Shown here piece after piece: positions 17,785 through 62,700 of a stretch of 64,000 nt of DNA. This stretch comes from Azolla caroliniana (Eukaryota > Plantae > Polypodiophyta), in the NCBI GenBank assembly GCA_043228905.1, contig JBHGNT010000015.1, positions 17,298,001 through 17,362,000 of the forward strand, given 5' to 3'. Made by a program: the position numbers and the translations under genes. The notes beneath the pieces are model-generated. The model searched no databases and was not told the origin of the DNA. It saw only the letters and a program-made list of their open reading frames with translations. The stretch's first letter is position 1. Each line of letters begins with the position of its first letter.

Positions 17785-17788
17785 TCTT

Positions 17789-17806
17789 TGGTGAACCCGA
17801 CGTGAA
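17789..17806 (+). promoter_or_regulatory. PBS complementary to tRNA-Trp
   Basis: TGGTGAACCCGACGTGAA is the reverse complement of the 3' 18 nt of plant cytosolic tRNA-Trp(CCA) as I recall it (...TTCACGTCGGGTTCACCA). Confidence 0.88.
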
Positions 17807-17828
17807 AGAGGCGGCAGAAGAGCAGAAG

Positions 17829-23443: not shown

Positions 23444-23501
23444 AGACGGGCCGGTTTTCTCCGTCCCAACTCTCTTGGCGCATACCGGAGGATGCGCGGT
23501 T

Positions 23502-23514
23502 AGGTGGGGGCGGA
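23502..23514 (+). promoter_or_regulatory. Polypurine tract of G1
   Basis: AGGTGGGGGCGGA directly before the 3' LTR; the same sequence precedes the G2 3' LTR. Confidence 0.8.
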
Positions 23515-24313
23515 TGTCGTGAAGAAAACCGTCCATAGGCGGAATCGGCGCACCAAGGCGTGGGAACCGGTTCTTCACGCACGCACGCTCCGAGTTGTAC
23601 ATAGAAACGAATTGAGAGGATAATCGGCAGGAACGGGCCCTAACTCAAGTGGAGACAAAGACCGCGCGAACAGTCTTTTCGGTCGCGCGCGCGAACTGTA
23701 CGAGTCGGCGGCGTAACTACGCGGATCCGTGAAAAACGGAGCGGATCCCTGTCCAAAAGGGACAGGGAATAAAGCTGACACGACGGCCTGTTCGTCGGCC
23801 TATATAAGGAGCGGGAAAGAGCTGTTGCAGGGATCTGGCGCGGAGAGGACGAAGTGCTGTCGGACCGTTTCTGGACGCTTCGCTCCCTCTGTTTCCTTCC
23901 TTCTTGAGCTCCAAAGCTTTCTGTGCAGGGTTCCGGGGAGGCTCGCGCTGTTTCGAGGAACGCCCGAGTGCTTCCGGCAGCACCTCCGACCTGCTACCCC
24001 CCCCCATTTCCCCGTTTGTGCGTCGAAGCGAACAGGCATCGGCATCTGTTCGCCGGCCTGTTCGGTTGCAACCAACCTGTGCCCCATCGGGGGTTGTAGT
24101 CGTGTTAGCCATTTTGTTAATACACATATTTAGTCATTCGCATCCGTCTGTGTCGGTGTCTGTTCGCGTTCTCCGTGCTGAAGGGCCGTGTCCCTGCGTA
24201 TCCCCGGTCCTGCGTAGCCGGTTCTCTCTCTTTCTCCTCCCTCGCTTGCTCTTTGGTTCGAGACCCCCGCGGTCCCGCCTCTATTCCACACGCACTTGCG
24301 TAATATCTCGACA
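23515..24313 (+). repeat. 3' LTR of G1
   Basis: Near-identical direct repeat of 16986-17784. Confidence 0.96.
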
Positions 24314-29724: not shown

Positions 29725-32700
29725 GGTAGTTTGGTTTTGACGTGTTGAGTTGTGTCTTTGTGCCCTCAACTACTGGCCAAAACGGTATTCAAAGAAGGAA
29801 CTTGAGGAAACATCACCGAAATATACACTCAAGCCAATTCAAGTGGCTAGGGTTGGAACGTAGACGACGATGTGATGCCTAATCTCAAGAGATTATTGAG
29901 AAAGTGGATTCATTTTGGGCAAAAAATACCCGTGTCTCGCCAAATAAGAAGGACATGTGTAGACAACGAATAAGTCAGGGTAAGTACCAGATTCACCCTA
30001 GACACTTCTTGGAGATGATAGAGGTATTCCATTTTTTTATATCAATTCACATTTCATAAATTTTTGTTTTGACCAAGTGTATATTAATGTTTGCTATATA
30101 TATTGGTTGATGTAGGCTGAATTGTACATGAACTTTAAAGACCAACATCCAAGCTTGACTGTTGGATTCCGCAAGTTCCAAGGTTTGAAACCATATTATG
30201 TTAGAAAATTAAATGAGAGGAATACATGTTGTTATGTGTACCACGTGAAGATGGACATGTTAAGGCTTGGAGTGAATGCAATGCGTACTGATTCTAAGGG
30301 TATACACGGGAAATTATGTGTTTGCACTTGGGAGGTTTGTAGACCAAATGGGGAGGATAATAGGTGTAATGCACGAAACATGACTTATGCATCCGTTTCT
30401 AAGTTATGGAGGTCTTGTGTTTGTGAAAAAGAGCCATCATGTGAGTGGCATCGTCGTACACGTCTTTTAAGAACATGTAAGGTTTGTCTGCTACCATTAT
30501 TTTCTAGGCAGGAGCATGATTTGGGAAACAGACATATTGTGAAGTGGAAATATTTAGAGAATGTGACTGAAAGTATTGGCAAGGGACTTGTAACTAAGCG
30601 TATCAAGGAAGTATATAAGGAGACATGTGCTGCTACCCTTGTCTCAGAATTTAAGAAACAACTTGGGGAGTTCATTCCACATAACTTTCGGAGTTATTGG
30701 CAAAATTCACAGTTCAAGGAATGTATTAATAACTTACCAACGGGTGTCATCATATTCGTTGTTATTGACTTTGCAGAAAACTATACATTTAAAGTTGAAA
30801 ATGAGGTTCAATCAATGCATTGGTACAATGATCAATGTACAATATACATATTTTCTATTGGAGACAAGACAGTGAGTTACATAAGAAATTAATATTTTAC
30901 ATTTCAGATGATAAAAAGCATGATACACTATTTGTTCAACATTGTTTTAAGCTTCACCATGTAGATTTATTGTCTCTAGGGTTTAGCTTTAACCGTCATT
31001 GGGTTTGGTCTAATGGTGCTGCCTCGTAGTTTAAGGCGGCACGATCGTTCTACTTTATCGCCAGGTAATTTTTAATCCATATGTTTAGTACTTATAATGC
31101 AATGTCTAAGGAAGAAATTCTTGTGTTAGTGCATGCATACTAATTATGTTTGTAACTATTCAAATACAGTACTATTCAAATGGATGCATGCATACTAATT
31201 ATGTTTGTAACTATGTTAAGTGTTCTTGATTGATCACATAGTACCATCCTGTCACATGAATCTGTGTTTATTATCTTTTAATCCATGTGAAGTGTTCTCC
31301 ATAGACACATTGTACTATGTTGTGTGTTGTATTTGTACTAAATTAGTATTTATTGAAGGATGTAAAGTACTCGTTTTGTACTCATAGTATTGGCCATTCT
31401 GAAGAGTTTGTATTAAGTATCTTTTAGTCCATGTTGAGTGCTCTCCATGGACACATTGTATTGTATTGTGTGTTGTATCTGTACTAAATCAGTATTTATT
31501 GAAGGATGTAAAGTACTTCTTTTGTACTCATAGTATTGTCCGTTCTTAAGAGTTTGTACTAATTATCTTTTAATCCATGTTGAGTGTTCTCCATGGACAC
31601 ACTATATTGTACCGTGTGTTGTATCTATACTAAATCAGTATTTATTGAAGGATGTAAAGTACATGCCTTGTACTCATAGTACTGTCCTATATTGAAGAGT
31701 TTGTACTAATTATCTTTTAATCCATGTTGAGTGTTCTCCATGGACACATTGTATTGTACTGTGTGTTGTATCTGTAATATATAAGTATTTATTGAAGGAT
31801 GTAAAGTACATGTCTTGTACTCATAGTACTGTCATATATTGAAGAGTTTGTACTAATTATCTTTTAATCCATGTTGTGTTCTCCATGGACACATTGTACT
31901 GTGTTGTGTATTTTATCTGTACTAAATCAGTATTAATGGATGCTAAGTACTGTTGGTTGACAACATAGTACTATTTATCTTTTAATTAGTGTAGAGTGTT
32001 CTCCATGGATACGTTGTGCTATGCTTTGTTTTATATTTGTACTAAATCAGTATTAATGGATGTATAGTACTCTCGATTGACAACATAGTACTAATGTTTG
32101 TTGGAAACCTAGGATACAAAAGCAGGTACTTCTCCTTATTCAACATTCGTATGCAATGGAACTACTTCGGGTCTGGACATGGAAAAGGAGAGCATGATGG
32201 CGCGGGGGCTGTGATCAAACGTGCCCTTACAAGTGAGCAGTTGGATAATAATGGTGCTAAGTTACAAAATGCACATAATGTTGTGGAGTGGCTAACATGG
32301 AAGATGTCAAATGATGGTAAGAACAGATTGTTTGTTGAGGTTCGCATTGATGAGGTCGATAGAACTAAATCATATGGTTGTAAAACCGTGAAAGGCACAC
32401 GAAGCACCCATTGTGTATTAGGGTTTAGCTGCAAGGACACAACACAATTGTTACTCCGTACTTTATCATTCTTTTGTTCCATGTGTATAGATGAATCTTG
32501 GGATAAATGCATCAACCTATCAATCGTGGAGCCTTGGAAGCTACAGAAGCTTGAGCCTGAACGACAAGATGATATTGAAGAGGATGCACATTCAAACGAT
32601 ATTGTATACTACAACCAACATCAAGACTTGGCAGTTTTATTGGAAGTTGGAGATCATTTTGCGTTGCTCAAATCTCCTCAGAATGAAGATTTAGAAGACT

Positions 32701-33011
32701 ACTACATTGTGGTGTGCAAGCAAGGAAAGAAATTATTGAAAGAAGTGGTGAGGGATGGATGGGGCAACATGTTCAATGTTGGTGAGTCTGTCGTGTATGG
32801 AAACTATTATGCAAAGTTCCCGCAATGCAAGAACACATATGCATTACTAAAAGATGCACCCATCGCAATAATCTACATTGCTGCCATTCTTGCGATCAAG
32901 TTCAATATGACTCAAGCAAAGCACAAGGTTAAGGGATACAACACTGTCTACAAGGTCCCCCAAGAGGTTCATGAGCACATATTAGGGGAGGTCTCTCTGT
33001 TTAATGCTTGA
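29725..33011 (+). pseudogene. Intron-containing DNA transposase pseudogene, Sola2-like
   Basis: Exons about 29725-30023, 30116-31064 and 32126-33011, joined in frame by GT-AG introns 30024-30115 and 31065-32125. Motifs RVSPNKKD, RNTCC..H, VIDFAENY, QSMHW, SDDKKHD, WS(N)GAAS*FK, WNYFGSGHGKGEHDG, C..C. Superfamily call is from motif memory. Confidence 0.65.
31272..32093. repeat. 146-147-bp tandem repeat in transposase intron 2
   Basis: TATCTTTTA starts at 31272, 31418, 31564, 31711, 31858 and about 31976; four full units and two shorter ones of about 118 bp. Confidence 0.92.
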
Positions 33012-35389: not shown

Positions 35390-36462
35390 GACCATCATCT
35401 CACCTTGAAAGTTGCCCATGTTTGATGCTCCGTCTGTAGCTCTTGGATCCTTTCTTGTAGCCCAATTGCAGCAATTTGGCTAAAGCTATTACTTTTTCCG
35501 TTTCGCTGACACCTCATTTAAGCATTTCCTCAATGTAAATCTTCAGAAATCTTGTTAAATTCATACCTTCGATGATTCTTACTCGTGCGAGAGTATTTTT
35601 GACGGATTTGTAGATGCTTGATATCATCCCTTCCTCCCGCATCATTCATTCCATTATCATACACAAAAGTCTCATTTGCTCATCCATTTTTCCTTGTTGC
35701 CGCCTTCACATCAGGTTCACCAAATATGTTGGGGTAGTTGTGGTTCGTGCGGTGAAGTCACAGGGACTAATGTTAATGGGAGTTTGAGCAAATTTTTATA
35801 AGGATTGTGCGACGATGTCACAAAGATTAAGGATAGAAGGAATAAGAGTTAAAAGTAATGTGTGTGAGAGAGAGACGAGCATAGATAAGACACAGAGACA
35901 ATGTATGATTTACGAAGCAAGAGTATACTATATGAACATGATTTATATTAAGAATACAAGATTTACCAAGTCTACAATGCTTGATCACAAGATAAAACCT
36001 TTCTCTACCAAATTTTGGATTGAACCCTCGACTTCAACTTCAACTTCAACTTCTAAACACAAGACACTTCCCATATGAGCTAACTTCTTCTTATTGATTT
36101 TTATTTTCTGATTTCCTCTTGATTGATTCCTTATTTTTTCTTGATTAATCCCTTGATTCCTTGCCTCTCTTTATAGGTTCTCTCATGCATATGATTCATG
36201 AGGGTGCATGGCATGCATGATCGTCATTTGGCGCACATGCGTTACATGTGATGCATGATAGCCATCATGCTCATCTAAGCTCTAATGTATGAAAATAGAC
36301 ATGCCATAAGTATGATGATCAAAATATAATTATAGAAAATACTTATTTTAATGGTATATACTTTGTACTTGGTATGTAAGGTTATGGGTTCAAGTCTCTC
36401 AAATGTTACTCAGTACAATATTCAAGTTTATCTTTATATCGTGAAGCAATTTCTTCATGACA
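35390..36462 (-). mobile_element. Old relic of the G1/G2 lineage: LTR about 35727-36462, Trp PBS, gag N-terminus
   Basis: Minus strand begins TGTCATGAAGAAA (G1: TGTCGTGAAGAAA). PBS TGGTGAACCTGATGTGAA at 35705-35722. Gag-like EGMNLTRFLKIYIEEML resembles G1 DGRDATKYLASYGAEML. Confidence 0.72.
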
Positions 36463-37471
36463 ACGTGAAGTGTTGTGACTTGCCTAGTTGGTCTAGAAAG
36501 TCGTCAAGTCGAGGGAGCGGATATAGGTAATGTATCGCCACCTTATTTAACTGCCGAGAATTGATGTAGATTTAAATGGCAAAATTTGATGTGAAATTGA
36601 ATGTACCATCTCTTAGAAAATATAAGGAAAATAATACAAATTGTGAAATAAAATAAATAAATAAATAAAACAATTATGACCCTAATATGAAGAGTCATAC
36701 GAACAGTTACACCTGTAAATAAAAGGACACATTTGTCCTATAAGAATAACAATACACGCTGTCGTGAAGAAAACCGTCCAAGGGTGGAATTGGGGCACCA
36801 AGGCGTGGGAACCGGCTCTTCACGCACGTGCGCGCCAAGTTGTACATAGAGGCGAATTAGGTACCTAGGAGGATCGAAGTGGTTAGATACGGTAGGTGGG
36901 AATTTAATGCCGAACGGCTCCTTCCTGACCGATAAAAGGAGGAGGACGGGGAGACACAAAGGATCGCGCGGAGAGGACGAAGTGCTGTCGGACCGATTCT
37001 GGACGCTTCTCTCTCTGTTCTCCTTCCCTTTTTCTCCATAGCTTTTCCTGTGCAGGTTTTCGAGGAGGCTCACGCTGTTTCGAGGAACGCCCGAGTGCTT
37101 CCGGCAACACCTCCGACCTGCTCCCTTTTGTGCGACGCAGCGAACAGGCATCGACATTTGTTCGCCGGCCTGTTCGGTTGTAACCATCCTGTGCCCCATC
37201 GCAGGTTGTAGCTTCTTGATCAGATATTTGCTTATATATATATATTCGTTTGTTTGCGTCTACCTGTGTCGGCTCTATTTGCGTTCTCTGTGTTGAAGGG
37301 CCGTGTCCCTGTGTATCCCCGGTCCTGCGTAACCGGTCCTCTCTCTTTCTCCACCCTCGCTTGCTCTTCGGTTCAAGACCCCCGCGGTCCCGCCTCGTTT
37401 CTATACGCACTTGCGTAATATCGCGACATCTTGGTGAACCCGACGTGAAAGAGGCGGCAGAAGAGCAGGAA

Positions 37472-39597
37472 ATGAGGGGATCGGATCTTGCAGAGGCCAT
37501 GGCTTCGGCCGTTGACCGGTTAGTAAACGCACGCGAGGGCTCCGACGCCCTCGACAGAGCCATTGAGGCGGTCGTCGGTACAATTGGCCGATTCAGCGGA
37601 AAGGATGCCACGAAGTACTTGGCGTCCTACGGTGCAGAGATGCTGATGCGGGACATTCCGGAAGAAAAGCGTCTTGCCGGATTTCCCCGAGTGGCGATGC
37701 CGAGCATCCATGCGGAGGTGCTCGAGGTGCGGGCGGAGAGCCATACCTGGGAGGAGTTCGAAGGTCGGCTCCTAGAGAAATACGGGCTGGACGACGCGCT
37801 CCGGCTTTCGAAACGAAGCTTCATGGAATGGGTGGAGTCCCCCGGGAAGGGAAGAAACGCGTCGGCACTCCTCCGGGAGTTTGAGGAAAACTTTGCGCGC
37901 CTTTCGACGCTTGACCGAACGATCCTGGATACAAGCCGGGTCCTACTGTTCGTCAAGTCGGTGGACGAGCGGGATCGGGATCACGTGGGCGCCCTGCTGG
38001 AAACCGAAGACGGGCTGACGACCGACTGGGCGGCGGTTAAGAGAGCCTGCGGCCGTTTCGACAAACAACGAGAATGGGCGGATAACGGGGCGACCGGGTC
38101 GGGCTCGGGCGCAGCAAGGAAGCTTGAACCGGCGCAGCCGGTGCGAAAGGGAGAGACCCGGGAGTGGTTGGAAACCGGTTCAGCTTCGACCGGCGTGATC
38201 AGAGGCTCGACCAGAGGAGCTGCGCTGGAGGAATTGACGAGGGCAATAAAGGACCTCCAAATTGCACAAGCCCGCAGGGAAGGCGGCGAACCGGCTCGCG
38301 ACCAACGGCCGCAGCGGAAAACAGATGCATGTGGTGCGACGAGGTCGGCCACATTCGGAAGGACTGCGGCGATTTTGCAGAGGCGCTGAAGAACCGGGTG
38401 GTGTACCTGTGGGAAGGCCGGGTGCACGCCAGCGACACCAGAAGGGCCCTAAACCGAAACGACGGGCGAGGAGGAATGAAGAGACTGATGGAAGAGGCGG
38501 CGGCCCGACATGCGGAAACCGTCCACTACTCGGCGTCGGCCGGCATTCGGGTCGGGGGCAGCGAGGCCCGAAAGGAAAGCAAAGCCGGATTCTGGTCGGC
38601 GATGCTGGAAGGACTCACCGGTACGCGGCTGAAAGGGGACGAAGCGGACCGCGCGGAGAAACGGGTCCGGGAGATAACCGGGTGGAGCGACCCGATCGAG
38701 GAAAAGACGGGCTTCGTGGAAGCCGCCTGCCAGAACTACGAGGCTCTGGTAAAAGAGAAGCGGGTGGGGAAAACCGGAACGACCGGGCCCTTACAACGAT
38801 ACGAGACCCGGTTCGGGCAACGACGGAACGAGGCCGGCGGGTCCAGTGCGCAAGATAACCCTAGGAAGGGCGGATACCGACTGGGGACGGAAATAGAGAG
38901 GACCACGGACCTGCGGAAGGTCCTAGAAGAACGGATCCTCGACAACAAGGTGGAGCTGTCATTACGGGAAGTGCTAGGAATCGCCAGGAAGGAGTTGCAC
39001 GACTCCATCGTGGACTTGGTGAAGCGGAAGAGGCTGTCAACGGAGGTAGAACCGGAAAGACCGGTAGAGGTGCGGACGACGCACCTAGACGACATGTCGC
39101 TGGAAGATGAGTGGGCGGAGAGCCACTATTCGAGGCCACACTGGGCCCGAGCGACCACGGAAACCCCGGTGAAGATCGGAGATGTCCAGGAACCGGTGGT
39201 AGCTTTGGTGGACCACGGTTCGGAGATCAACCTAATGTCCATGGACTTCTACAAGAAGGGCAAATGGCCGATCAACACCAAGCACGGGTGGAAGATACGG
39301 GCGGCGACGCGCGCCACCGAGGAACTGCACGGGGCCTGCCCGAACGTGCGGGTCAAGATCGGCGACGTCGAGATTGACCAACACTTCTTCGTACAGGAGA
39401 CGTCCTCGCATCCGGTAATATTGGGAGAGCCGTACATCACGGCGGCGCGAATGGAGACCAAGGTGCTGAATAACGGTTCGGCCTATGCAAGGGTCAAAAG
39501 CCAGGACGGGCGCCATTCGGTCCAGTTTCTGACGGTACGGCCGAACCGCGAACGTAACCACGACTCCCTCGGTTCCGAAAACCGAGAGGATTTTTAG
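37472..39597 (+). pseudogene. gag: G2 gag-protease with one frameshift near 38310
   Basis: ORFs 37250-38389 and 38164-39597 together are collinear with G1 ORF1. Confidence 0.9.
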
Positions 39598-42500
39598 AGA
39601 GGACTGCCAGGGCGTGGGGCCGCGACAGTCCGGATGCTCCGGGAAAACCCCACATCTGTACGATAAGACTGTGTACAATAGGTAGGAAATTTTGCTTCTC
39701 CGACAGCGGAGCATGTACGATAGTCGGCATCGCCGGCCGAGAGAAGACAAAGACGGAGGGGAGACTTCGAGCGTGCGGAGTTCTCGGCCCTGACGAGGAA
39801 ATCAACGGAGCCGTGGAGGCGGTCTCCTTCGACGACACCTTGGGAATGCTGGAGAAGGTAGTCGAAGAGGACCTTAACGAAGACCGGACGATACCGGTAT
39901 GTTCCGAAGAGATGTACGAAGCCATCGCGGACTTTGGTCGGGGGCTCGAGTCGGACCGGACGGCCCGAGTAAGCACCAAGTACAAGACTGTGGACCGGAA
40001 GGTAAGGCCAGTCGCGGTACCCTTACCGGAGGGCAGCGAGTCGCGAATCAAAGGGGTTGCATCGGACCCCAGCTTACGAGATCCGGCCTGCATAGGACAC
40101 ACCTTCACCAACGAGACACTCCGGGAGCTCAAAATCGGTGGGGGCGGGTTCCTACTACCGGCGGAGGAAGACCGGTTTCGGAGAATGCTCGGAAGGCACG
40201 GGAAAGCCTTCGCATTCTCACCGGAGGAAATCGGGTTCGTAGACCCGACGATCGTAGAGCCGATGGTGATATTCACGGTACCGCATGTACCGTGGAATCT
40301 CAAGCCAATTCCGGTTCCGAGAGCTCACATCCCGAAGTTGATGGAGCTGTTGAAGCAGAAAGTTGATATGGGCATTCTCGAGCCGTCGAGCGCCCCGTAT
40401 TCAAACCGATGGTTTACCGTACCAAAGAAAAACGGATCATTGCGCTTCATTCAGGACCTGCAACCGGTCAATAGGGTGACCATTCGGAACGCAGGGATCG
40501 GACCGACCATAGACGAGTTCGCGGAAGCCTTCGCCGGAAGGTCGATTTACTCGGTTGGAGATCTATACTCAGGGTACGACCAGTTCCAGCTAGCCGTGGA
40601 GAGCAGAGACATTACGACGATGCGAACTCCCCTCGGCCTAGTGCGGATGTGTACGCTGCCGCAAGGAGGGACCAACTCGGTGGCCCACATGGTGAATGCG
40701 ATGAACAAGGTTCTGAGGGACTGCATCCCGGACATCACCATGCCGTTTCTGGACGACATCCCGATCAAGGGATGCCCGGTAGCAGAGAAGGACGAGACGA
40801 TCGGGCCGGACGAATGCCGGCGATTCGTGGCGACGCACATCGACGATTGCGAGAAGGTGCTGCAAAGGCTAGAGGATGCGAGGCTCACCTTCTCGGGGGA
40901 GAAATCAGCCTTCGGGCAGTCGGAAATCATGGTGGTCGGACACTTATGTGGGCCATATGGCCGGAAACCGTCTCCGGCAAAGATAGAAGCCATCTCCGCG
41001 ATGAAGCCCGACTGCAGCTCGGTCACGGAAGTACGAAGATTCTTGGGAGCATGCGCGTTTTACCACATATGGATCCCGCATTACGCACACGTCGCGGAGC
41101 CGCTGTACGGGTTGCTGAAGAAAGGGCGAAGGTTCGAATGGCTTGACGAGCACACGGAGTCGGTCCGGAAGCTGAAGGAGGCTCTTTCGGTAGCACCGGC
41201 GCTCCGGAAGGCCGTCTACAAGAAGGGCACCCCAGTATACATAACGGTTGACACGAGTCCGACCGGAATCGGGTGGGTCGTCAACCAACAAGACGAGGAC
41301 GGCAATCGGTTTCCGATCCGATTCGGTGCGAAAGTCCTCAGTGAGCGGCAGCGAGGATACGCCCAGGTTAAACGCGAACTCTGGGGTATCGTTTCGGCGG
41401 TAAAAGCCGACAAAGACTATCTGATCGGGACAGAAGTGATTATCGAGACGGATTGCCTGCCAATTCTCGGCATGGTTTCCGGATGCGCGATGCCGGACCT
41501 GGCGATGCTCAGGTGGATAGCGTACATCAAGTCCCTGGACCCGGAAATACGACACATTTCCTGGAAAGACAACGCCATGGCCGACATGCTTTCGAGGGTG
41601 AGGTTCGATGACGAGGGCGGCATGGTTTCGGAGGACGAAGAGGTCGGCGTGGACTTCTTCGAGGCAGCATACGTAACAACAGACGGGACGAGCACTCCGG
41701 CGCTTAACGACTTCGACGCGAGCAAGTACGACGGGGAGTGGCTGCGGATCGGCGGGTTCTTGAGGACAATGGCGCCGGATGCGTCATGGACGAAAGACGA
41801 GGGCAACCGGATCCGGAAGAAAGCGTACCGGTTCTTTCTCCGGGATGGCTATCTATGGAAACACCCGAAGAAGAGGAGCGGCGTCCCGCTCCGGGTGGTG
41901 GCGATGAAGGAAGAACAGGAGGAGCTGTTGGCGGCCTACCACGACAGCCCTTGGGCTGGACACCGTGGAACGTGGGCCACGTTCGAGAAACTAAAGGGGA
42001 AGTACTGGTGGCCGGGATTGTACCGAGACGTGCGTCGGTTCGTGACGACTTGCGAAAACTGTCAGATGCACTCCGTAGTCCGACACCGGGACGAGCTTCA
42101 CCCTACGTACCCTCCGACCATCCACTTCAAATGGATGGTAGATCTGGTGACGATGCCAATGGGGGTAGGACAGATGCGGTATCTGGTCCTAGCACGGGAG
42201 GATCTGACGAACCAGGTGGAAGGCCGGGCCCTTCAGAACAAAACGACCGCGGCCGTATGTCGGTTCCTAATCGAGGACGTGATATGCCGGTACGGGTGCG
42301 TCGGGAAGATCGTGGCTGACCGAGGGGAGTTGGACGCCGAAGAAGCCGCGGAGCTGTTCGACCGGCTGGGAGTCAAGCTCTCGCTCACCACTGCGTACAA
42401 TCCGGAGGCGAATGGAAAGGTGGAGCGCGGACACGGGCCGATCGTCAAGGCGCTGGTTCGGGCATGCGGAGGCCAAGTCGGTAACTGGCCGCGGCTGCTA

Positions 42501-43076
42501 CCTTATGCTTTGTGGGCAGACCGGACTACGCACAGTTCGGTAACCGGGTACATGCCGACGGAGCTCATGTTCGGCCAGAAGCCGATCATGCCGATGGAAC
42601 GGACGATCTCCTCATGGGCAACGGTCGACTGGAGGGACGAGATGAGCCGGGAGGAGTTGTTGGCCGCGCGTATACGACAACTCGAGCGGAGACCGGAGGA
42701 CGTGGAGCTGGCTGCGGAGAAGCTCCGGGTGGCGAGGACAAAGAACAAAGCCAGGTTCGACCGAACGCACTGGCTCTGACCGAAGAAGATCGAGGAAGGT
42801 GACTGGGTGCTCGTCTACGACAACAGCCTCGACAACCAGCACCGGGCTACACGGAAGTTCGCGCGGAGATGGTTTGGGCCGTACGCGGTACAAAGCGCCA
42901 ACGACAACGGGACGTATCACCTGGCGGAACTCGACGGCACGAGAATGGCGATACCCGTGGCTGGAAAGAGGATCAAATCCTTCAAGAAGCGACACGACGA
43001 CGAGCCAGACCCGGTTCTCCTGGACAGCAGCGACGACCGGTCCGAGACCGAGGAAGGACCGATGGGCGAAGAGTGA
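39594..43076 (+). pseudogene. pol: G2 pol (RT-RH-INT) with a premature TGA at 42777-42779
   Basis: Highly similar to G1 ORF2; CGA to TGA change, with the frame continuing to 43076. Confidence 0.92.
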
Positions 43077-44768
43077 AAGCGGGCCGGTTTTCTCCGTCCC
43101 AACTTAATTTGGCGCATACCGGTGGATGCGCGGTTAGGTGGGGGCGGATGTCGTGAAGAAAACCGTCCAAGGGTGGAATTGGGGCACCAAGGCGTGGGAA
43201 CCGGCTCTTCACGCACGTGCGCGCCAAGTTGTACATAGAGGCGAATTAGGTACCTAGGAGGATCGAAGTGGTTAGATACGGTAGGTGGGAATTTAATGCC
43301 GAACGGCTCCTTCTTGACCGATAAAAGGAGGAGGACGGGGAGACACAAAGGATCGCGCGGAGAGGACGAAGTGCTGTCGGACCGATTCTGGACGCTTCTC
43401 TCTCTGTTCTCCTTCCCTTTTTCTCCATAGCTTTTCCTGTGCAGGTTTTCGAGGAGGCTCGCGCTGTTTCGAGGAACGCCCGAGTGCTTCCGGCAGCACC
43501 TCCGACCTGCTCCCTTTTGTGCGACGCAGCGAACAGGCATCGGCATCTGTTCGCCGGCCTGTTCGGTTGTAACCATCCTGTGCCCCATCGCGGGTTGTAG
43601 CTTCTTGATCAAATATTTGCTTATATATATATATTCGTTTGTTTGCGTCTACCTGTGTCGGCGTCTATTCGCGTTCTCTGTGTTGAAGGGCCGTGTCCCT
43701 GTGTATCCCTGGTCCTGCGTAACCGGTCCTCTCTCTTTCTCCACCCTCGCTTGCTCTTCGGTTCAAGACCCCCGCGGTCCCGCCTCGTTTCTATACGCAC
43801 TTGCGTAATATCGCGACAACGCCAGAAAAGAGCCAGAACAATTTCTAAATTAAACAAATTCATCTTTCGATCTCTCTCTAAATTTCTACATGGTATCAGA
43901 GTAGGTTCCCTATTCTACCATAGAAAAATCAGAGAACGGCATGTAGATCAAACTCTCTGCACAGAAACAATAAATCACAGAATAGGCTAGAACTTTTTAC
44001 CCTCTTCTAAGACTTGCACACACATGTTTTTTTGAACAAATAATCTTTCATAGCAATGGCTCATGCAACACCTTCATCCCAAAACTTTTCGTATAGAAAA
44101 ACAAAAATTAGCAAATTGAATAACACAAATTATGGAGTCTAGAGTAGCAAAATGATTCTCCTTTTCAATAAGCCAACTTTAGTATCACTATATTTTTTTT
44201 CTCTCGCACCGTTCACAACCATGTGTAGGGTTGCCCTCTTTGCAGCAAGTTTGTCTATGATCTCTACACCTTTCACTAAGTCTAGGGATGACTTCATAGA
44301 CTATACAATCTCTTCTAAAACACATTGGTCCCTAAATTTTATTCTCCCCATGTTTTTATTCAAACGTTAATGGTGTAACACTCTACATATAATATCCATA
44401 TGATCCTCTTCACCAAATCTCTTCGTTATTTCTACCAAATAACGGACTATGTGAAGAACCACTCGTCTCTTGGTCCTTTCAGATATACATGAGTTACTTG
44501 ACAACTCACCTCATTGGGGATCCCCATTTGGTCACTAGATTTATCCAAAAAAATTAAGTGTCTTGCGAGAGTAGTTAATGTTATATAGTCTACACTAAGA
44601 AATCACAATCAAATGTTTTTAAATGCGGCTTGCAAAGTGAGAAATAATTCGTTTTGGACATTAGAATTATCAATCAAAGATGACAATTATCATTTCTTTA
44701 TACACAAATTTCTAAAAATGAAAAAATTTAGTACTGAAAATGAAAAAATAGTTCGGAAATTTAGTACT

Positions 44769-47704: not shown

Positions 47705-47775
47705 TTGCACTGATCTACATAGGCAATGCCCAATAGATTTCAAGTCTATTGCCTTAACCCCTTGCCAAGTCAATC
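47705..47775 (-). pseudogene. tRNA-Ser(UGA)-like pseudogene, T-arm decayed
   Basis: Minus strand GGTTAAGGC ATAGA-CTTGAAA-TCTAT TGGGC: D-loop end, paired anticodon arm with TGA, and start of a long variable arm. Confidence 0.6.
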
Positions 47776-47812
47776 ATATAGATGGGTTGACATTGGTTTT
47801 AGTTAGTGTTTT

Positions 47813-48390: not shown

Positions 48391-48529
48391 ATATTATTAA
48401 CCATCAACAATTTGCTTGCTTTCCTCAATTTACAATAGATTCACCATTCTTGACCTCAAAGATAAATATTAAGTTCTACCTAGAAAGACAAAAAATTGAT
48501 ACAAATCACTTTTTACATTGGAAACATGT

Positions 48530-48611
48530 ACTGACGATAGGATTCAAACCCACATAAGGAATGCCCAACAAAGTTCAAGTCTATTGCCTTACCCCCTTGA
48601 CAAAGCCAAAC
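48530..48611 (-). pseudogene. tRNA-Ser(UGA)-like pseudogene, second copy
   Basis: Minus strand GGGTAAGGCAATAGACTTGAACTTTGTTGGGCATTCC...GTGGGTTTGAATCCTA. Confidence 0.6.
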
Positions 48612-48869
48612 ATATAAATAGCTTTCAAACTCAAGAAACCTAGACAAGATCTATAATCCCCTCTTTCTATTCGACATAAGATTCATAAATGTTGTGAATG
48701 AGTGAATCTAGGGCTTGGACAACCCTAAATTCATTTCGAGAATCTTAGACGATTAGGGTCATCCACTTTATTCTATTTACATATAAAAAGAAAACGAAAA
48801 AGAAAAAGAAACTCAAAAAAAAAAAAAAGTTTTTGGGGAGAAATTCAAAACATTTCTTTTCCTTTCTCT

Positions 48870-49175
48870 ATCATGATATAGCATGGTATGGCTTTAAAAG
48901 GATTTGAACCCATAACCTTATGTCACATGGGTTGAAGTCTTACCATTAAGCTATACTTGTAATACAAAAATTATTTTTTCCATTTAATATTTCACTTAGG
49001 AAATCCATGTAAATTCTAGATTTCTCTGGAACATTCTAGAAATGTTAAGAGTATTCCTAAGCCACTATAAAAAGAGGCACATGGCATTATTGAGAGCCAA
49101 ATCGGTTCAATGCCAGTCATCAGCCTCCTAGCTATTCTTATATATTCTCTTCATATAATATATATCTTTTGTTAT
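48870..49175 (+). repeat. LTR fragment of the chromovirus family at 59762-60179, cut by element H
   Basis: Reverse-complement similarity to 59900-60179 (CACTATAAAAAGAGGCACA, CCAAATCGGTTCAA.GCCAGTC, GCCTCCTAGCTA). Confidence 0.8.
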
Positions 49176-50019: not shown

Positions 50020-51064
50020 GATTACATGTCTCAATTTCATCATATGTTGGCTATTTGATGTTATGATTTTTTTAATATACGCATATGTGGTAATGTGTAT
50101 ACGTATTTGATCGTATATATGTGATAAATAAACATATGTATATTTGATATTACGTGATCTTTATATTGACTGTTGTCCTTTTTGGGGAAAGGATCTTAGT
50201 GGCCGTCCTAACGTTTTTGTGAGAATGGCGTAGTCACCATCCTTTTTTCAACAATTTTTTTGTTGACATCCCCGTTGGTCATTTCGATTTCGTTACGTAG
50301 CACAATGATGGTGAGAACGTAGGGCTTGACCCACTTCATGTGAGGTCGCTCCTAGGACACACATATCCAACATCCCTCCCTCATTACATGGATATGATGC
50401 CACCATGAGATCATTCTTACGAAAGGCATTCGTAATGACGTAACCATGTGATGGGCCTCGTGGGCCTACTACGAAAAGAGGGCTCATTTGGCTTGACCAT
50501 TAGGTTGCACTTTGGCGTATGCCATCGTAATTATGAGACTTGAGGTTAGGTAACGTACCAACATAGTTTGGGGTAAACGAGAGGGAAATAAGGACTCTTG
50601 GCATATATGTTTCTTTTAAAAAAACATATATGAGCAAATGCCTCGCATATCTCTTATACGCATAAAACATTCAACATTCAACACGAGCAACCTATTTGGT
50701 TAGCTCAAGTGTTTAATGCATTCGTTCTCGAGGTCTCGAGTTCAAATATGACCAAGACCATACAACATTGTTGATACATATCACTATAATACATATTTAG
50801 ACTTTAGGTCTAAGTGCACTTCGGGGTACTTGTAATAGGACTTAAAGAGCCGAAACCACATACGTGAGCACAGAAACATAGTTTATTGTTAACATTTTTT
50901 TCGTGCATAAACTATTCATGACGCGAACATACATGGTTGAGCCTCGGGGAGCCGCCATGAAAAAAATAGATATAGAGATCAGGGAAAGACATTCATTTGT
51001 CACCCCCATGGTTTTTAAAACACCTTTGTGTTACCATAGTAATCTTGAACCTCATCTCATATGT

Positions 51065-51773
51065 TGTCGTGCCTTTTGGCTCCAGATCGTTGCATGAATC
51101 GGGTGGGAGCCACTGAGGTTTTTGGACTAGGAGAAAAGAAAATTCTAAGGCAATTTAGAATATGAAATATATTGTAAGACAGAAAGATATAAGATATGAA
51201 AAACTCGTGAATCCCACGATTATATTATATTAATCAACCCTTGTAAAATAAGCAACAACCCCCATACATCTTTCTCTCCTCATATAAGGATGGAACAAGC
51301 TAATCATAGCTTCATGCTTTTTCTAAAGTGTTTATGCACACTAAATGTGCATGAGTTTCCTTTTTACACTATGCTTTTATTTCCTAAATATAATGTTCAT
51401 GCTCGCTAGATGTGCACGAGTCATTTTTTATTGGTGTACATTTTTCTTATAAATAAAGTATTCACGCATTCTAATGCATGACTTACCTTTTAATAAAGGT
51501 GGGCGTAAATAAAGGTCTTATACGTATTAAATCTATATTTAGAACACTTAGGATAAGTTAGTACAATGGTAAGGTTGGGGTTGAGGTACAGGGTTCGAAT
51601 CTTGCCCTATGCACGTAATAAATATTTTTAATATTTTATTTTATTTATTATACGTACTTTAAATCGGATATAGTATTTTACATATTTCACGTAGTGTGTG
51701 ATTCACACTACGACAACGTCTACAGGGGTATTGATGTGAGATCATGATATCAATTACCGTGAAGATCATGACA
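51065..51773 (-). repeat. LTR-like sequence (TGTC...TGACA)
   Basis: First 240 bp or so match 54537-54780; terminal inverted repeats; cuts the G3 pol at VPWNLK. Confidence 0.65.
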
Positions 51774-54536
51774 CTTCAGGTTCCACGGCACATGGTCAAT
51801 CGTGAAGATCACCATCAGCTCCACTATCTTCGGATCAACGCACCCTATCTCCCTTGATGTGAATGCAAGTGCTTTTCCATGTGGTTCCAACATCCCACGG
51901 AATCGTTCTTTTTCATTTTGTAAAAGGAAACCACCTCCACCAATCTGAAGTTTCTTCCGGGTCTCATCCGTGGAGGCATGTCCGATATCCACGGACTTCC
52001 AAAGTGTCAAATATTCCGAGACTTCTTTCCTCTTTTGTTCGCTATTGGCGGGTAGTAGTCCCGCGGCCGGTTTCACCTTCTTCTCCACGGTCTTGTATTT
52101 CATACTTACCATTGCTTCTTCTTTGCGGAGTGCATCCGACCCCATTTTCGCAATGATCTCGTACATCTCGACCGATTCCATCGGAATTACCCGGTTTCCC
52201 TGGCTTGTATCTTCCGCGAGCTCTTCAAGCCGTTGTAGTGTGCTCCCATAGAACACTTCTTCGATTATTCCCACGATTTCTTCGTCTTCTTTTATTATTG
52301 ATGCCAACCGCAACTTATCCTCTACTTTTCGGTATTCTTTCGTCTTTCCTCCGATTACGGCCGTGTACGTAGATGCCCCATCCGGATCGATTCGTACTTG
52401 TTTTGCCCCGAGAGTTTTCTTCCTGTGTGGGGTATCAGGGCTTCTCGGACTATCACTTCCCCACTCCGCAACCGTCCGCTCTAAAAATCCATCCTTGTTT
52501 GGGACAAGAGCTCTCTCTTGTTCCTTTCATGATTTGCCGGCACCGTTAGGAATTGGACGGATTTCCCTCCGCTTTGGCTCCGAATTCGTGCGAAAGCCGC
52601 ACCACTATCAAGCACCTTCGTCTCCATTCGTGATGCCGTGATAAATGGTTGCCCGAGGATCACGGAGTGTGAGACCTCTTCTTGTACGAAGAAATTTTGG
52701 TTGATCTCGACATCCCCGATCTTCACCGTCACATCCGGACAAGCCGCAAATAGATCTTCCGTTGCTTTAGTGGCTTCATGGATCTTTCATCCATGGTTAG
52801 TTTTTATAGGCCACTTCCCCTTCCGGTAGAACTCCTTGGACATCAAATTGATCTCCAATCCGTGATCAATCGATGCTAGCACGGGCTCTTTGATGTTGCC
52901 GATTCGGACCGGAGTCTCCGTAGTTGCACGTGCTCAGTGTGGCCTTGTGTAGTGGGAGTTCGGTATTTCGTCCTCCACTTCGGTGTCATTCATTAAGACA
53001 TTATTTGCATTCACCCTTGGAGCATTTTCCTCCGTACTTTGTCTTTTTCTCTTCACGAGATCCACAAGAAGATCGTGGAACTCCTTCTTAGCTATTCTGA
53101 GTAGTTCCCGAAGCGAAAATTCTACCCGACTATCGAGGATTCTCTCCTCGAACACCTTTTTCAAGTCCGTTTGTTGTTCTATGTCCGAGGCGAGCTTGAA
53201 TGCCGGAATTGTCTTTTCTTTTCCCTTCCCTCCGGAGCTCCAGCTTTCCGGTGTCTTTGATGGTCCGGTTGCATCATCCGTGCATTGTCATTTTTCATCC
53301 ACAATCACTTCATGCAATTAACATAGCGCATGTACGCTATTCTTATCTACGGGGCACTCCCATCCCATAGCTTCCCGGATACATTCCGCAGCGCTTCGGA
53401 TTTCATCATGTTCGGCTTTCTTCAAAATTTCTAGCACTTCTAGCCAAAAAGACGTCTTTGTTGTAGATGACTCCCCGACACGTATTCCCGCGGTTGTTGC
53501 ATAATCACTTTTTGCCGCTATTTCCTCTTCGAGGACCTTCTTCATGCCACCTTTCCAGAAGTTCGGTCGGAGTGGCTTCCGAGAGTCCATCGAATGGATC
53601 TGATTTCCCTCGTAATAGATAAGATCACGTCGTGATGCCTCCTTGTGCGCGTTGCAATCCCTCTGATCATGTTCGATGCTATTGCACCATATGCACCGAC
53701 GGTCCATATAATTGGAGCTTGTGGGACGGTCATCCGACTTCTTTACCATCGCGATTTTTAGATTCTCCATTTCTTTCAGCAACTGCTCTACCGTGGTTGC
53801 GTCGATTCCCTTCTCGGTCGTAGTCTCCCAAGCCCGCGATTGATAGTCTTCCGATCCGGATCTCGGTTTCAGAATCGGTTCCGAAACCCTCTTTTCTTCG
53901 TTGGCAAGGCATTGCCCCCTCTTTGTGTATCGCACGACGATATCCTGCACGCTTTCCCATGTTTCGGTGAGGCCACTCTCAGTAGTCGTGTCCTCTAGAA
54001 GCACTCCAAGATCCTTCCGGTCTCGGACGTCTACAGTTCGTAAGAACATGATAACTTTGTTCGGTGAGAGGATAGCTTGATCTCTCGCAGACAACCTCCT
54101 GAACCGACTCTCGAATGCCGAAAACAAATCGAGGACCTTCATCCCCTTGTCTGACGTTTCCCCCCAATCCTCAAATCCTCTCCGCGTTGCCTTGGAGGAG
54201 TCCTCGATAGCGAACGTGGTCTTCAGTGCCTCTTCAAACGCTTCCCACGTCGGATTTTGTTGTCGTAGCCCGTGGATAGTTGCTTGAAGCCCATCGGTAG
54301 CCACCCGGTTGAAGGATGTCACTTACAGTCCTTCCGAAATCCCGCACCGTATCATTTCCGCCTTGTAGTCCTGAAGATAGCGTGATACGTCATTTCCGTT
54401 GAATTGCCCGATCCGTTGCACGAGCCGCTCTACTACCGCCGCTATCTCCGACATCGCACGTTGTTCTTGAAGCATCCACTCGAACATCATCATCATGTTG
54501 TTAGCCTCCGGTTGATTTCCATCTCCTTGCCACCTG
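51774..54536 (-). pseudogene. G3: diverged gag-PR and 5' pol fragment of the G1/G2 lineage
   Basis: IGQFNGNDVSRYL, RCIWCNSIEH, ERILDSRVEFSLRELL, IDHG.EIN, KYKTVEKKVKP, FTIDHVPWNLK; multiple stops. Confidence 0.9.
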
Positions 54537-54888
54537 TGTCATGCCTTTCGGCTCCGGATCGTTGCATGAATCGGGTGGGAACCACTGAGGTTTTTGGACT
54601 AGGAGAAAAGAAAATTCTAAGGCAATTAAGAATATGAAATATATTGTAATAAAGAAAGATATAAGATATGAAAAACTCGTGAATCCCACGATTATATTAT
54701 ATTAATCAACCCTTGTAAAATAAGCAACAACCCCCATACATCTTTCTCTCCTCCTTATATAAGGATGGAACAGGCTAAGCATTTCTCACAAATACAAAAT
54801 TTCCTTAGTTCAACTGCTCATCAGAAGTCCGAACTTCGGCAATCTCAAAGTGCTCTCAAGGCACGTGTCATTAGTTTACAACGTGACA
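54537..54888 (-). repeat. LTR-like sequence sharing one end with 51065-51773
   Basis: TGTCATGCC...CGTGACA; TATA-like CCTTATATAAGG near 54753. The right boundary is tentative. Confidence 0.6.
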
Positions 54889-55485: not shown

Positions 55486-57043
55486 GACCCAACAAATTCA
55501 TGGATCACGATTGTAAGTGACAACATCTTTATTGTGTATTCTACAAAAAGAAGGGTCATACAAAAGAGTAATGTCGAAAGCTCCAACGAAAAGAGCACGA
55601 CAGCAAAGCAAAAGCTGCAAACCATAAAGGTCAGATTCCTAATGTCCTTGAGGTCTATACACATCATTTAAGTAATTGTAAATGTTCTTTCCCTCACTAT
55701 GTATTGGGACCCAATGATTTACTACGTGCAAACGGGTATATCACGGACCCAACAAATTCATGGATCACGATTGTAAGTGACAACATCTTTATTGTGTATT
55801 CTGCAAAAAGAAGGGTCATACAAAAGAGTAATGTCGAAAGCTCCAACGAAAAGAGCACGACAGCAAAGCAAAAGCTGCAAACCATAAACGTCAGATTCCT
55901 AATGTCCTTGAGGTCTATACACATCATTTAAGTAATTGTAAATGTTCTTTCCCTCACTATGTATTGGGACCCAATGATTTACTACGTGCAAACGGGTATA
56001 TCACGGACCCAACAAATTCATGGATCACGATTGTAAGTGACAACATCTTTATTGTGTATTCTGCAAAAAGAAGGGTCATACAAAAGAGTAATGTCGAAAG
56101 CTCCAACGAAAAGAGCACGACAGCAAAGCAAAAGCTGCAAACCATAAAGGTCAGATTCCTAATGTCCTTGAGGTCTATACACATCATTTAAGTAATTGTA
56201 AATGTTCTTTCCCTCACTATGTATTGGGACCCAATGATTTACTACGTGCAAACAGGTATATCACGGACCCAACAAATTCATGGATCACGATTGTAAGTGA
56301 CAACATCTTTATTGTGTATTCTGCAAAAAGAAGGGTCATACAAAAGAGTAATGTCGAAAGCTCCAACGAAAAGAGCACGACAGCAAAGCAAAAGCTGCAA
56401 ACCATAAACGTCAGATTCCTAATGTCCTTGAGGTCTATACACATCATTTAAGTAATTGTAAATGTTCTTTCCCTCACTATGTATTGGGACCCAATGATTT
56501 ACTACGTGCAAACGGGTATATCACGGACCCAACAAATTCATGGATCACGATTGTAAGTGACAACATCTTTATTGTGTATTCTGCAAAAAGAAGGGTCATA
56601 CAAAAGAGTAATGTCGAAAGCTCCAACGAAAAGAGCACGACAGCAAAGCAAAAGTTGCAAACCATAAACGTCAGATTCCTAATGTCCTTGAGGTCTATAC
56701 ACATCATTTAAGTAATTGTAAATGTTCTTTCCCTCACTATGTATTGGGACCCAATGATTTACTACGTGCAAACGGGTATATCACGGACCCAACAAATTCA
56801 TGGATCACGATTGTAAGTGACAACATCTTTATTGTGTATTCTGCAAAAAGAAGGGTCATACAAAAGAGTAATGTCGAAAGCTCCAACGAAAAGAGCACGA
56901 CAGCAAAGCAAAAGCTGCAAACCATAAACGTCAGATTCCTAATGTCCTTGAGGTCTATACACATCATTTAAGTAATTGTAAATGTTCTTTCCCTCACTAT
57001 GTATTGGGACCCAATGATTTACTACGTGCAAACGGGTATATCA
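55486..57043. repeat. 260-bp tandem array, 6 near-identical copies, from the gag knuckle/PR junction of H
   Basis: GACCCAACAAATTCATGG at 55486, 55746, 56006, 56266, 56526 and 56786; the ORF track repeats every 260 bp. Confidence 0.97.
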
Positions 57044-59761: not shown

Positions 59762-62700
59762 TGTTAGGAACAGTACGAAGACAGAGAAGGAATTAGTACT
59801 AAAAGAAGTATTAGTACTAAGAGAGGTGAAGAACTCTCGAGAGAAGGAAAGAGTGAGTGAGAGGGAGGGAGAGAGAGAGTGTGTGATGATAAGAAGAGAT
59901 ATATATTATATGAAGAAAATGTACAGTAGCTAGGAGGCTTAAGACTGGCGTTGAACCGATTTGGTTCGAAATAATGCCTTGTGCCTCCTTTTATAGTGTT
60001 CTACGGAATACTCTTGAAGTTTCTAGAATGTTCCAAAGAAATCTGGAATATACATCAATTTTCTATAATAAAACATAAATGAAAATAATATTTTACGTAT
60101 TACAATGTATAGTCTAATGGTCAAGAGCTCGACCCATGTAGCATAAGGTCATGGGTTTGAGTCTTGCCATATCATGACACTATCCCCCCATTAAAATGAC
60201 GAGTGTAACGAGTCGTTTTGGATTGAGGACCCGGTTTTTCTGGATATTGACGATGGAAGTCTTCAAGAAGAGCACGAGCATTCGTGACATTCTCTATCGG
60301 TTCCCAAGTACGCTCACTGGGACTATATCCTAGCTAATCGACTAGATAGTAGAGCTTGTTGCAAACAAGCTTGGAATCAAGGATGGCGGCAACCTCGTAC
60401 TCAGGTCCATCTTCAAGCTCAATCGGGGGTGGAGGTTGTGTAATACGTCCTGGGATGGTGCTCTCTTGATAGGGTTCAAGGAGAGAACTATGAAACACCG
60501 GATGTATCCGAAGTTGTGGAGGTAGATCAAGACGAAAAGAGACATCATTAATCTTTCCTATAATATAGAAGGGACCTAATCGCCGATAATCCAACTTCTC
60601 GCATGGGCGAGTAGTCTTGATGTGTCGTAGGAGTAGCCATACCCGATCTCCAATGTTAAAACTAGATGGGAGTCGATGACGATCCGCATAAACCTTGTGT
60701 GTTTCTTGAGCTTGTTGGAGATGAGTAGATAAATCCGCTTGTATCTTGCGTAACCTCTCCAAACGATCCTCTGCCCAAGGATTTGTGGACACCTCTGGGG
60801 TTTCAAGTACACACCACTGGGGGTGACATCCCGTATAAGCATAAAATGGTGTAACTTTAGTGGATGCGTGGATAGAGTTGTTATAGGAAAATTCGGCGAA
60901 GTGGAGAATATCTGCCCAGTTATCCTGATGATAGCTAAGAAAGCACCGCAGATACTGCTCCAGCGTTTGATTGGTTCGTTCGGCTTGGCCGTTGGTTTGT
61001 GGGTGGTAGCCGGAGGAGAGGTTACAAGTGACCTTGAGCATGTTAAAAAGGTGCTTCCAGAATTTTGACACGAACTGGGGTCCACGGTCGTTGATGATAC
61101 TATCGGGAAGTCCATGATGCCGACATATTTCATGCATGAAAATTACTGGAAGATCTGTGATGAAGTCTAGAGCAATGGATTGCCACGGCTTGCTTGGAAT
61201 TGGTAATGGTTCTAATAAACCATATGGATGATGCCTTGGCATTTTCGCTCTGCAGCATGTATCACAAGTCCGAACAAAATCTTCGACAAATTGTCGCATA
61301 CAGGGCCACCAGAATGATCGTTGTACTAAATGTAGCGTTTTAGTACTACCAAAATGCCCAGCTGTATATGTGTCAAGACAGTTTTGTACTACTTGAAGGC
61401 GGCAAGAACCATTAGGAACATACAAAAGCTCTTTAAAGAAGAGTAATCCATCATGGTATTTGAATTGCCGATAGTCCGTACCTGGTGGTTGCGACTGTGA
61501 ACACGACCCTCGAGAGGGATCAATTTGTGCTAGTATAGCTTGGGCGAACACATCTGTCTTCAAGTCTTCGTGTATGGTATCCGTAACGCGGGAATCCATG
61601 GGCATGTCAAAGATCTGTGTTGCTTGTAGTCGTGCCGGTCCCAAGATGACTTGTTTTTGGTTATCGAAAGCTGGCTCGCCGAGACGGGGTGCTAGATACG
61701 AACGCCGTGATAATGCATCTGCCTTCCCTTGGTGCTTCCCCGGACGATATGTAATTTTGAAGTCGAAACGCGTGAGGAAGTGGGCCCACCGAGCTTGACG
61801 TCGATTCAACACACGAGCATCCTGAAAGCAGGCAAGGTTCTTGTGGTCACTAAATACGGTGACCGGATGAGAGGATCCCTCCAGAAAATGCCTCCATTGC
61901 ATAAAAGAATCCACTATTGCCAATAGCTCCTTATCATGAATTTCGTAGTTGATTTCGGCGGCGTCAAACTTGCGTGAGTGAAAAGCCACAGGATGTAGCT
62001 TCTCATCATTCCCCTGTTGTGACAAAATTCTCCCCAATGCAAAATCCGATGCATCAGCTTCGATAATGAATGGTTTTTCCGGATCGACATGAGCTAGAAT
62101 TGGAGCCAATGTAAATGCCTTTTTAAGACTCTCGAAATACATGTCCGTTTCTTCAGAACAGATGAACGGTTGTCCCTTCCTGGTAAGTTGTGTGAGAGGT
62201 AGAACAATCTTTGAGTAATCTTGTATGAACTTCCAGTAAAAATTGGCAAAGCCTAGGAAGCATTGCACATCCCGCACCGAACGCGGAGTCTACCATTCTA
62301 CCACTGTTTTGACCTTAGCTGGGTCCATGGAGATGCCTTTTGACGAAATGATGTAGCCGAGAAATTCCACTTGGTTGCACCCGAAACTACATTTTTCCAG
62401 CTTTGCATACAAACCATGTTCTCGAAGTCGTTTTAGTACTAATAGTACATGAGAATCATGTTCTTCTTGGGTCTTTGAATAAACCAGTAGATCATCCAAA
62501 TAGATGATCAAACAATCATCCAATAGATCTCGGAATATATCATTAGCCATGTGCTAGAGGACTGTCGGCGCATTAGTGAGGCCGAACGGCATGACCGTAC
62601 ACTCAAAGTGCCCATATCTAGTGCAAAACGCGGTCTTCCATTCGTCTCCTGGTCGGATCCGTACGAGGTTATATGCTCTCCCCGTAAGTCGATCTTCGTG

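Follow-up and report, generated by a model that had tools for sequence, protein, structure and literature searches.

Why do several LTRs at this locus carry tRNA-type A-box/B-box pairs that face away from the elements they belong to? The window, by which we mean the whole 64-kb stretch of DNA analysed here, is a nest of LTR retrotransposons, and a sequence-only reading had placed four such pairs in it. Their coordinates and letters were all as that reading had given them (Table 1).

Box pairs and the LTRs that carry them

The window was scanned with generic box patterns, the textbook motifs TRGYNNARNGG for the A box and GGTTCRANNCY for the B box, in an untuned search with an A-to-B distance of 30–60 and at most one mismatch over both boxes. 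Exactly four pairs were found in the 64 kb (modules 1–4); 40 block-wise dinucleotide shuffles run with the same settings contained 0.175 pairs on average and never more than two. At two mismatches the window contained 11 pairs versus 4–8 per shuffle (eight shuffles), so that the weaker pairs are mostly noise. The modules had been attributed to several different LTR families. More than one family was indeed involved, but modules 1 and 2 lie in copies of a single LTR family (82% identical), and the number of families is therefore three.

Table 1 Coordinates of the modules and of the elements that carry them.
Feature	Position	Strand	Remarks
Module 1	60110–60164	+	A box 60110–60120, B box 60154–60164, 44 nt apart; antisense to LTR
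Module 2	48900–48953	-	Both boxes at consensus, spacing 43 nt; B box followed at once by TTTT
Module 3	51559–51602	+	Both boxes match consensus, 33 nt apart in window copy; T run 22 nt past B box
Module 4	36344–36397	+	B box matches consensus, A box decayed in window copy, 43 nt apart
3' LTR, chromovirus family	59762–60179	-	418 bp; module 1 at LTR positions 16–70
TATA-like box, chromovirus 3' LTR	~59988–59996	-	114 bp past A box
8-bp inverted repeat	60131–60157		60131–60138 with 60150–60157, 11-nt loop; replaces anticodon arm, pairs with T-arm side
Polypurine tract	60180–60192	-	Directly precedes LTR start
pol reading frame	60334–62289	-	End of RT, RNase H, integrase, SH3 of Tf2 type, chromodomain-like tail interrupted by stop
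Older chromovirus LTR copy with module 2	48869–49173	+	Older subfamily; ends ~49174 at Met-primed LTR of another family
LTR 3, solo LTR, Phygy-like	51065–51715	-	651 bp; 4-bp duplication ATGT/ACGT; inserted in another repeat
Shortened coding element, LTR-3 family	51774–54782	-	5' LTR piece 54537–54782, 95% to 51065–51307
LTR 4, 5' LTR, older Trp-primed Phygy-like family	35727–36462	-	736 bp; flank ACGT
Trp-type primer site of LTR 4	~35705–35722	-	Like that of young elements

In all three families the A and B boxes are 42–44 nt apart in most copies, and the A box, an AGGT variable loop and the T-loop of modules 1, 2 and 4 stand in tRNA register (43–44 nt). Module 1 has one C-to-T change in the B box of the window copy and retains a tRNA-type variable loop in register. 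The short spacing of module 3 is due to a 10-nt deletion at 51582/51583 in the window copy; most other contigs supply the missing letters, restoring a spacing of 43. Module 4 had been described as having a weak A box, which is correct for the window copy but is not the state of the family, as many other copies restore the consensus (loose ends do so in 12 contigs of run X1 and 20 of run X3). A 17-nt match reported between modules 2 and 4 was likewise present and consists mostly of the tRNA variable loop and T arm, yet it depends partly on copy-specific changes: most other LTR 4 copies have G at position 36384, and the family majorities differ at two letters of the match. Position 60150 is C in nine of the 11 chromovirus copies described below.

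The modules had been placed within about 220 bp of the LTR 5' end, pointing outward; the measured distances were 16–157 bp, and the orientation was antisense to the element in all three families. Among 16 LTR stretches delimited in the window, four contained an antisense pair with one mismatch or none, and a sense pair with fewer than three mismatches was found in none. A TATA-like box follows the A box of the chromovirus LTR after 112–114 bp, on the side of the opposite strand; the corresponding distance in LTR 4 is 168 bp. The Met-primed LTR contains, at 49302–49249 (minus strand) and ~128 bp from its start, an antisense pair at a spacing of 43, with no mismatch in the A box and two in the B box; the pair has no tRNA variable loop and is possibly a decayed fourth case or a chance occurrence. 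The 5' termini of LTR 3 (51680–51715) and LTR 4 (36437–36462) each contain a short inverted repeat with an 8–9 bp stem, and short inverted repeats were also seen by eye in several distant chromovirus LTR starts.

The closest relatives of the chromovirus protein have a chromodomain (PF00385), and the named ones are from fungi, vertebrates and Closterium. According to the sections of PMC6317226 on these elements, the Tcn1 clade has a chromodomain after the integrase and is related to the fungal and vertebrate Tf1/Sushi elements, and the Tcn1 and Phygy clades have been reported from moss and club-moss. From this protein kinship we infer that the carrier of modules 1 and 2 is probably a Tcn1-like chromovirus.

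A metagenome scan with the chromovirus yielded 13 loci, 10 of which hold its LTR (L008, L009 and L013 are without one), and all 10 LTRs carry the unit. The copy set comprised these 10 loci and the two window copies minus L002, which is identical to L001 over the LTR; in the alignment, the unit was present in 11/11 distinct copies. The A-to-B distance was 42–44 in nine of them, whereas L011 had lost its A box by deletion and that of L007 was broken. Both boxes were perfect in four copies, and seven had one or more box mismatches; in the L001/L002 type, which is deeply covered, the A box has a single mismatch. Four or more T directly follow the B box in all six older copies. In the young group this T run has been lost through a short deletion, and there is none inside the LTR. 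The chromovirus protein had no match when searched against viral contigs alone. An alignment search recovered 3 and 23 distant loci (28–55% identity), in which no box pair was found after the chromodomain, a weak negative because several of these loci end before or shortly inside the LTR.

For module 3, the LTR-like stretch had been delimited as 51065–51773. Its real end is 51715, and the stretch is a solo LTR flanked by a 4-bp duplication. The minus orientation formerly deduced for it was borne out by purine-rich loose ends behind 51715 elsewhere and by the gag behind the sister LTR at 54537; in other copies the complement of the purine tract continues past 51715, and at empty sites the left flank runs directly into 51716. 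The coding element of the LTR-3 family is 42% (gag) and 45% (pol) identical to a young Trp-primed element. Coverage of module 3 by contigs was deep in four runs, which carry four organism labels. Depth peaked over the B box and T arm in all four runs and was equally high over the box-free U3 part at 51488–51544, and contig depths for LTRs 3 and 4 are not copy numbers. No B-box variant occurred among the 40 of 48 variants listed for LTR 3, and the A-box variants listed were at 51561 (a fixed position, in a minority) and at 51563, 51564 and 51566, so that three of the four fall on tolerant positions. A 24-letter pattern over the T arm of module 3 had no match in viral or prokaryote-genome contigs. 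A weak tRNA-like unit with three box mismatches was observed at 50701–50749 (plus strand) in the repeat that hosts the solo LTR.

For LTR 4, all four runs (three organism labels) had contigs that span the module and the LTR start. The summed depth in run X1, a measure of contigs and not of copies, was 34,566 over the B box versus 3,678 just upstream of the A box (~9-fold). A few contigs had the module region tandemly repeated among the 40 of 229 variants listed.

Phygy elements prefer an NCGN target, as described in the pages of PMC6317226 that concern them. A 4-bp duplication of this kind was found as ACGC/ACGC twice in related young elements, as ATGT/ACGT at LTR 3 and as ACGT beside LTR 4; the carriers of modules 3 and 4 share this feature and the lack of a chromodomain, and an assignment of both as Phygy-like would fit. 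Together with the Tcn1-like chromovirus, they suggest a moss or a comparable non-seed plant as the probable host. Two very young, GC-rich, Trp-primed Phygy-like elements (16986–24313 and 36760–43818), with LTR pairs 99.9% and 98.5% identical, are also present in the window; they have ACGC duplications, and their CpG is not depleted. No module was found in the LTRs of these two. Other repeats include six head-to-tail 260-bp copies with 99% identity at 55486–57043, within a gypsy gag-pol region, and DNA-transposon-like reading-frame fragments at 30100–33000, which are split by a 146-bp tandem array at 31270–31934 and had no Pfam match.

Nature and origin of the units

The units are not functional tRNA genes, since ARAGORN found 0 genes in the window and the Rfam tRNA scores lie below the cut-off of 29. 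Module 2 scored 15.3 bits and the copy at L010 14.7 bits, and modules 1 and 4 had no match to the Rfam tRNA model. Module 4 passed ARAGORN only at a lowered threshold, where predictions under 90% are noise (at least 40 in the window). No 5S rRNA-derived sequence was matched in the Rfam scans, and the boxes are tRNA-type. Free tRNA-derived SINE insertions were likewise rejected, because the units occur in sister LTRs of all three families. The sequence-only reading had itself named private SINE insertions, absent from the LTR families, as the outcome that would overturn it; in fact every chromovirus copy had the unit, and in other copies of LTRs 3 and 4 it was joined to the LTR.

The acceptor and anticodon stems are gone from the units and the cloverleaf is lost, with the boxes near consensus. 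By contrast, decayed tRNA-like copies nearby keep their stems and show box mismatches. Worn tRNA-derived A/B units are thus fixed family traits in three LTR families from two distant Ty3/gypsy lineages. The proposal that unrelated LTR lineages carry tRNA-derived heads held, with one chromovirus family and two Phygy-like families having them as fixed traits.

The anticodon-arm/core-spacer region showed no likeness between the three families, with which an independent capture by each would be compatible. A common origin of the three units was rejected on the same lack of core-spacer similarity. The spacers of module 2 and of a unit in L012 gave p = 0.006, as one pair among 28. An origin by primer read-through was also rejected, as the sequence that follows the module 4 B box does not match the Trp primer site of its own element; read-through would, moreover, be expected to put the copy behind U5 and not in U3.

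Other tRNA-like pieces were found beyond the modular LTRs, at 48528–48610 in the window, twice in L012 and in L013. The first (minus strand) is a decayed tRNA-Ser(TGA)-like copy with a long variable arm, which scored 19.7 bits with Rfam and was called by ARAGORN at a lowered threshold; a second Ser-like copy without a T arm lies at 47717–47783 (minus strand) inside a duplicated repeat. L013 contains a tRNA-Arg(ACG) gene or young pseudogene at 1046–1118 (39.6 bits). In L012, DNA of the same host, an A/B unit at tRNA spacing (4992–5045, plus strand) ends 17 nt short of a contig end resembling an LTR start, in which case the unit is antisense, and another at tRNA spacing (639–584, minus strand) lies in an LTR-like stretch of ambiguous orientation and may be sense.

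Candidate roles and constraint on the boxes

Because the unit faces away from the element, it cannot make genomic RNA as in Cassandra or, as proposed, in Helenus. The T run after the B box (+0 in the older chromovirus subfamily, +22 in LTR 3) would keep a transcript short and inside the LTR; in these two, the unit is unlikely to be an antisense promoter that reads outward. If there is neither genomic RNA nor RNA reaching into the flank, an effect on DNA or chromatin remains. We tentatively favour the reading that the units are kept as a landing site for TFIIIC and TFIIIB by which the adjacent Pol II promoter would stay open despite silent chromatin in the flank, while rating it at somewhat under an even chance.

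Under such a scheme, a tRNA gene or tRNA-derived SINE head would have entered the U3 of a founder element, and ordinary reverse transcription would have copied the captured unit to both LTRs. TFIIIC on the boxes would place TFIIIB; given the outward direction of the unit, TFIIIB would then come to lie in the interval from the A box to the TATA box. A unit in the 5' LTR would separate the promoter from host chromatin, the position at which a barrier would be effective, and in copies with a T run behind the B box any RNA made is predicted to be a short by-product. The landing-site reading draws support from the same orientation and place in 3/3 families and from the retained tRNA spacing and variable-loop/T-arm register. 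Yeast tDNAs act as chromatin barriers. In Leishmania a gene is driven by divergent tRNA-like boxes adjacent to it, as set out in the sections of PMC4950102 on that gene, and those of PMC8136502 on tRNA-derived B2 SINEs describe them as mobile chromatin boundaries.

Boxes maintained for such a role had been expected to be more conserved than the flanking U3. In the chromovirus LTR, parsimony changes per site, which include tolerated transitions and decay after insertion, were 1.25 at fixed A-box positions and 0.89 at fixed B-box positions versus 0.76–1.02 elsewhere. Between the young and older groups, which were defined by eye, changes had occurred at 0/12 strictly fixed and 4/10 tolerant box positions (P = 0.029, post hoc), and 50 core-U3 sites likewise had no diagnostic young-versus-older change. 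The outcome is mixed: subfamily changes avoid the fixed positions, yet the overall rate is no lower. Intact boxes without stems are no proof of selection in the LTR, because SINE heads lose their stems before capture and such a state can be inherited. The module is not needed to transpose, since the young Phygy-like and the distant chromovirus LTRs lack it. We lean towards constraint on the boxes, for which the sequences are only suggestive.

These observations also bear on the alternative that the units are neutral passengers, abundant tRNA-derived pieces that inserted where U3 begins, an AT-rich and tolerant region, in a few founders and were amplified along with them. In that case the backward bias would reflect the removal of sense insertions that disturbed the element's transcript. 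Passengers would explain why the boxes change no more slowly overall, why box mismatches are so frequent among the chromovirus copies, why young and successful Phygy-like LTRs do without the unit, and why tRNA-like pieces also occur outside the modular LTRs. They would not explain why subfamily changes avoid the fixed box positions, why all three families keep tRNA spacing, or why the unit persists across several organism labels and diverged subfamilies while the adjoining U3 of LTR 4 turns over. We regard this alternative as a real but doubtful possibility.

For the chromovirus, selection might instead act on a hairpin that the genomic RNA or the cDNA forms next to the polypurine tract, where U3 begins; the hairpin would have arisen from the captured tRNA piece and would keep the B box mainly through its overlap with the stem. 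Variation within the unit is lowest in the 8-bp stem, with 4.0 private departures per 100 cells versus 7.8 at fixed box positions, 97.5% of cells are paired in 10 chromovirus copies, and the distant chromoviruses in which short inverted repeats were seen by eye at the LTR start are module-free. Its covariation, however, did not exceed that of shuffles (161 of 500 reached the observed level), and a hairpin leaves unexplained the A box and also the units of LTR 3 and LTR 4, where no such stem was seen. Taken together, we consider it improbable that the hairpin was the selected feature.

It is more improbable still that the units are small Pol III genes whose antisense RNA of 60–90 nt acts on the element's own RNA, for self-damping, as a silencing decoy or as a packaging aid. 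The T runs of the six older chromovirus copies and of LTR 3 do complete a promoter-terminator unit, but the young chromovirus group and LTR 4, where no run of four T occurs inside the LTR, lack one, and the transcribed spacer is unconserved between the families.

Finally, tRNA-gene mimics could attract tRNA-targeting retrotransposons to insert alongside. An apparent copia-type 3' LTR end lies ~6 nt upstream of the tRNA-Arg gene in L013, possibly a tRNA-targeted insertion, and an LTR starts ~36 nt upstream of the Ser-like piece near 47775. None of the four window modules, however, has an insertion at a fixed short distance upstream, and attracting other elements would bring the carrier no benefit; we consider this idea far-fetched.

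Comparison with known systems and significance

The closest known system is Helenus (TRIMp3), in which a tRNA-derived sequence with boxes A and B lies inside the LTR, as it does here (sections on TRIMs in Kojima 2024, PMC10886601). The same sections describe the Helenus elements as non-coding TRIMs of 311–1263 bp that are thought to be transcribed from the Pol III promoter. By contrast, the chromovirus family has pol and the LTR-3 family has gag and pol, LTR 4 being known from its LTR and Trp primer site, and the carriers keep a TATA-like box. In the Helenus LTRs examined in the supplement of that paper (PMC10886601), including Helenus-1_SMo, the unit is sense, whereas it is antisense at the U3 start in 3/3 families here. 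The families in the window thus differ from Helenus in two features, being no TRIMs and having a promoter that does not face into the element. A backward unit in protein-coding families with a TATA-like box cannot make the element's own RNA as in TRIMs.

Cassandra, another TRIM, also resembles the present case in having an internal Pol III promoter in both LTRs of a plant LTR element; as summarised in PMC10886601, however, its promoter is 5S-derived, the element is non-autonomous and the promoter drives its own transcript, whereas the units here are tRNA-derived and face away from the element. The Leishmania U2 snRNA gene needs the divergent tRNA-like A/B boxes upstream of it, the arrangement with the tRNA gene alongside being head-to-head; in the sections of PMC4950102 on this arrangement, the unit adjoins a Pol III gene on a host chromosome, whereas here it adjoins the Pol II promoter of an LTR, with an effect that is only proposed. 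In tDNA barriers and mouse B2 SINEs, tRNA-type promoters mark chromatin-state boundaries and can be mobile. Those are host genes or, for B2 (PMC8136502), free SINEs, while the units here are a fixed part of the LTR.

We found no literature on an antisense tRNA-like A/B unit in autonomous plant LTRs, most subscription journals, Repbase entries and bioRxiv supplements lying outside the scope of the search. B2 boundaries work with CTCF, a protein that is not known from plants. According to Kojima 2024 (PMC10886601), in the part that concerns tRNA-like LTR components, 'not a few' Repbase LTRs hold such parts, with only TRIMs analysed, so that the raw phenomenon may already be recorded there. Known Pol III promoters in LTRs come from short non-coding TRIMs, where they make the element's own RNA; the tRNA-type unit here lies backwards in protein-coding LTR families.

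In its widest form, the landing-site reading would mean that autonomous LTR elements of two distant lineages in one non-seed plant group repeatedly gained an outward tRNA-gene mimic, which recruits the Pol III machinery as an anti-silencing barrier and seeds thousands of mobile TFIIIC sites; this we think unlikely. Even if they are neutral, the units would inflate tRNA-pseudogene predictions and add many potential TFIIIC sites. If they are selected, they would represent a simple cis strategy of plant retrotransposons against silencing and would permit a direct test of whether tRNA-type promoters are chromatin barriers in plants, for which the same genome offers families with and without the unit as well as copies with intact and broken boxes.
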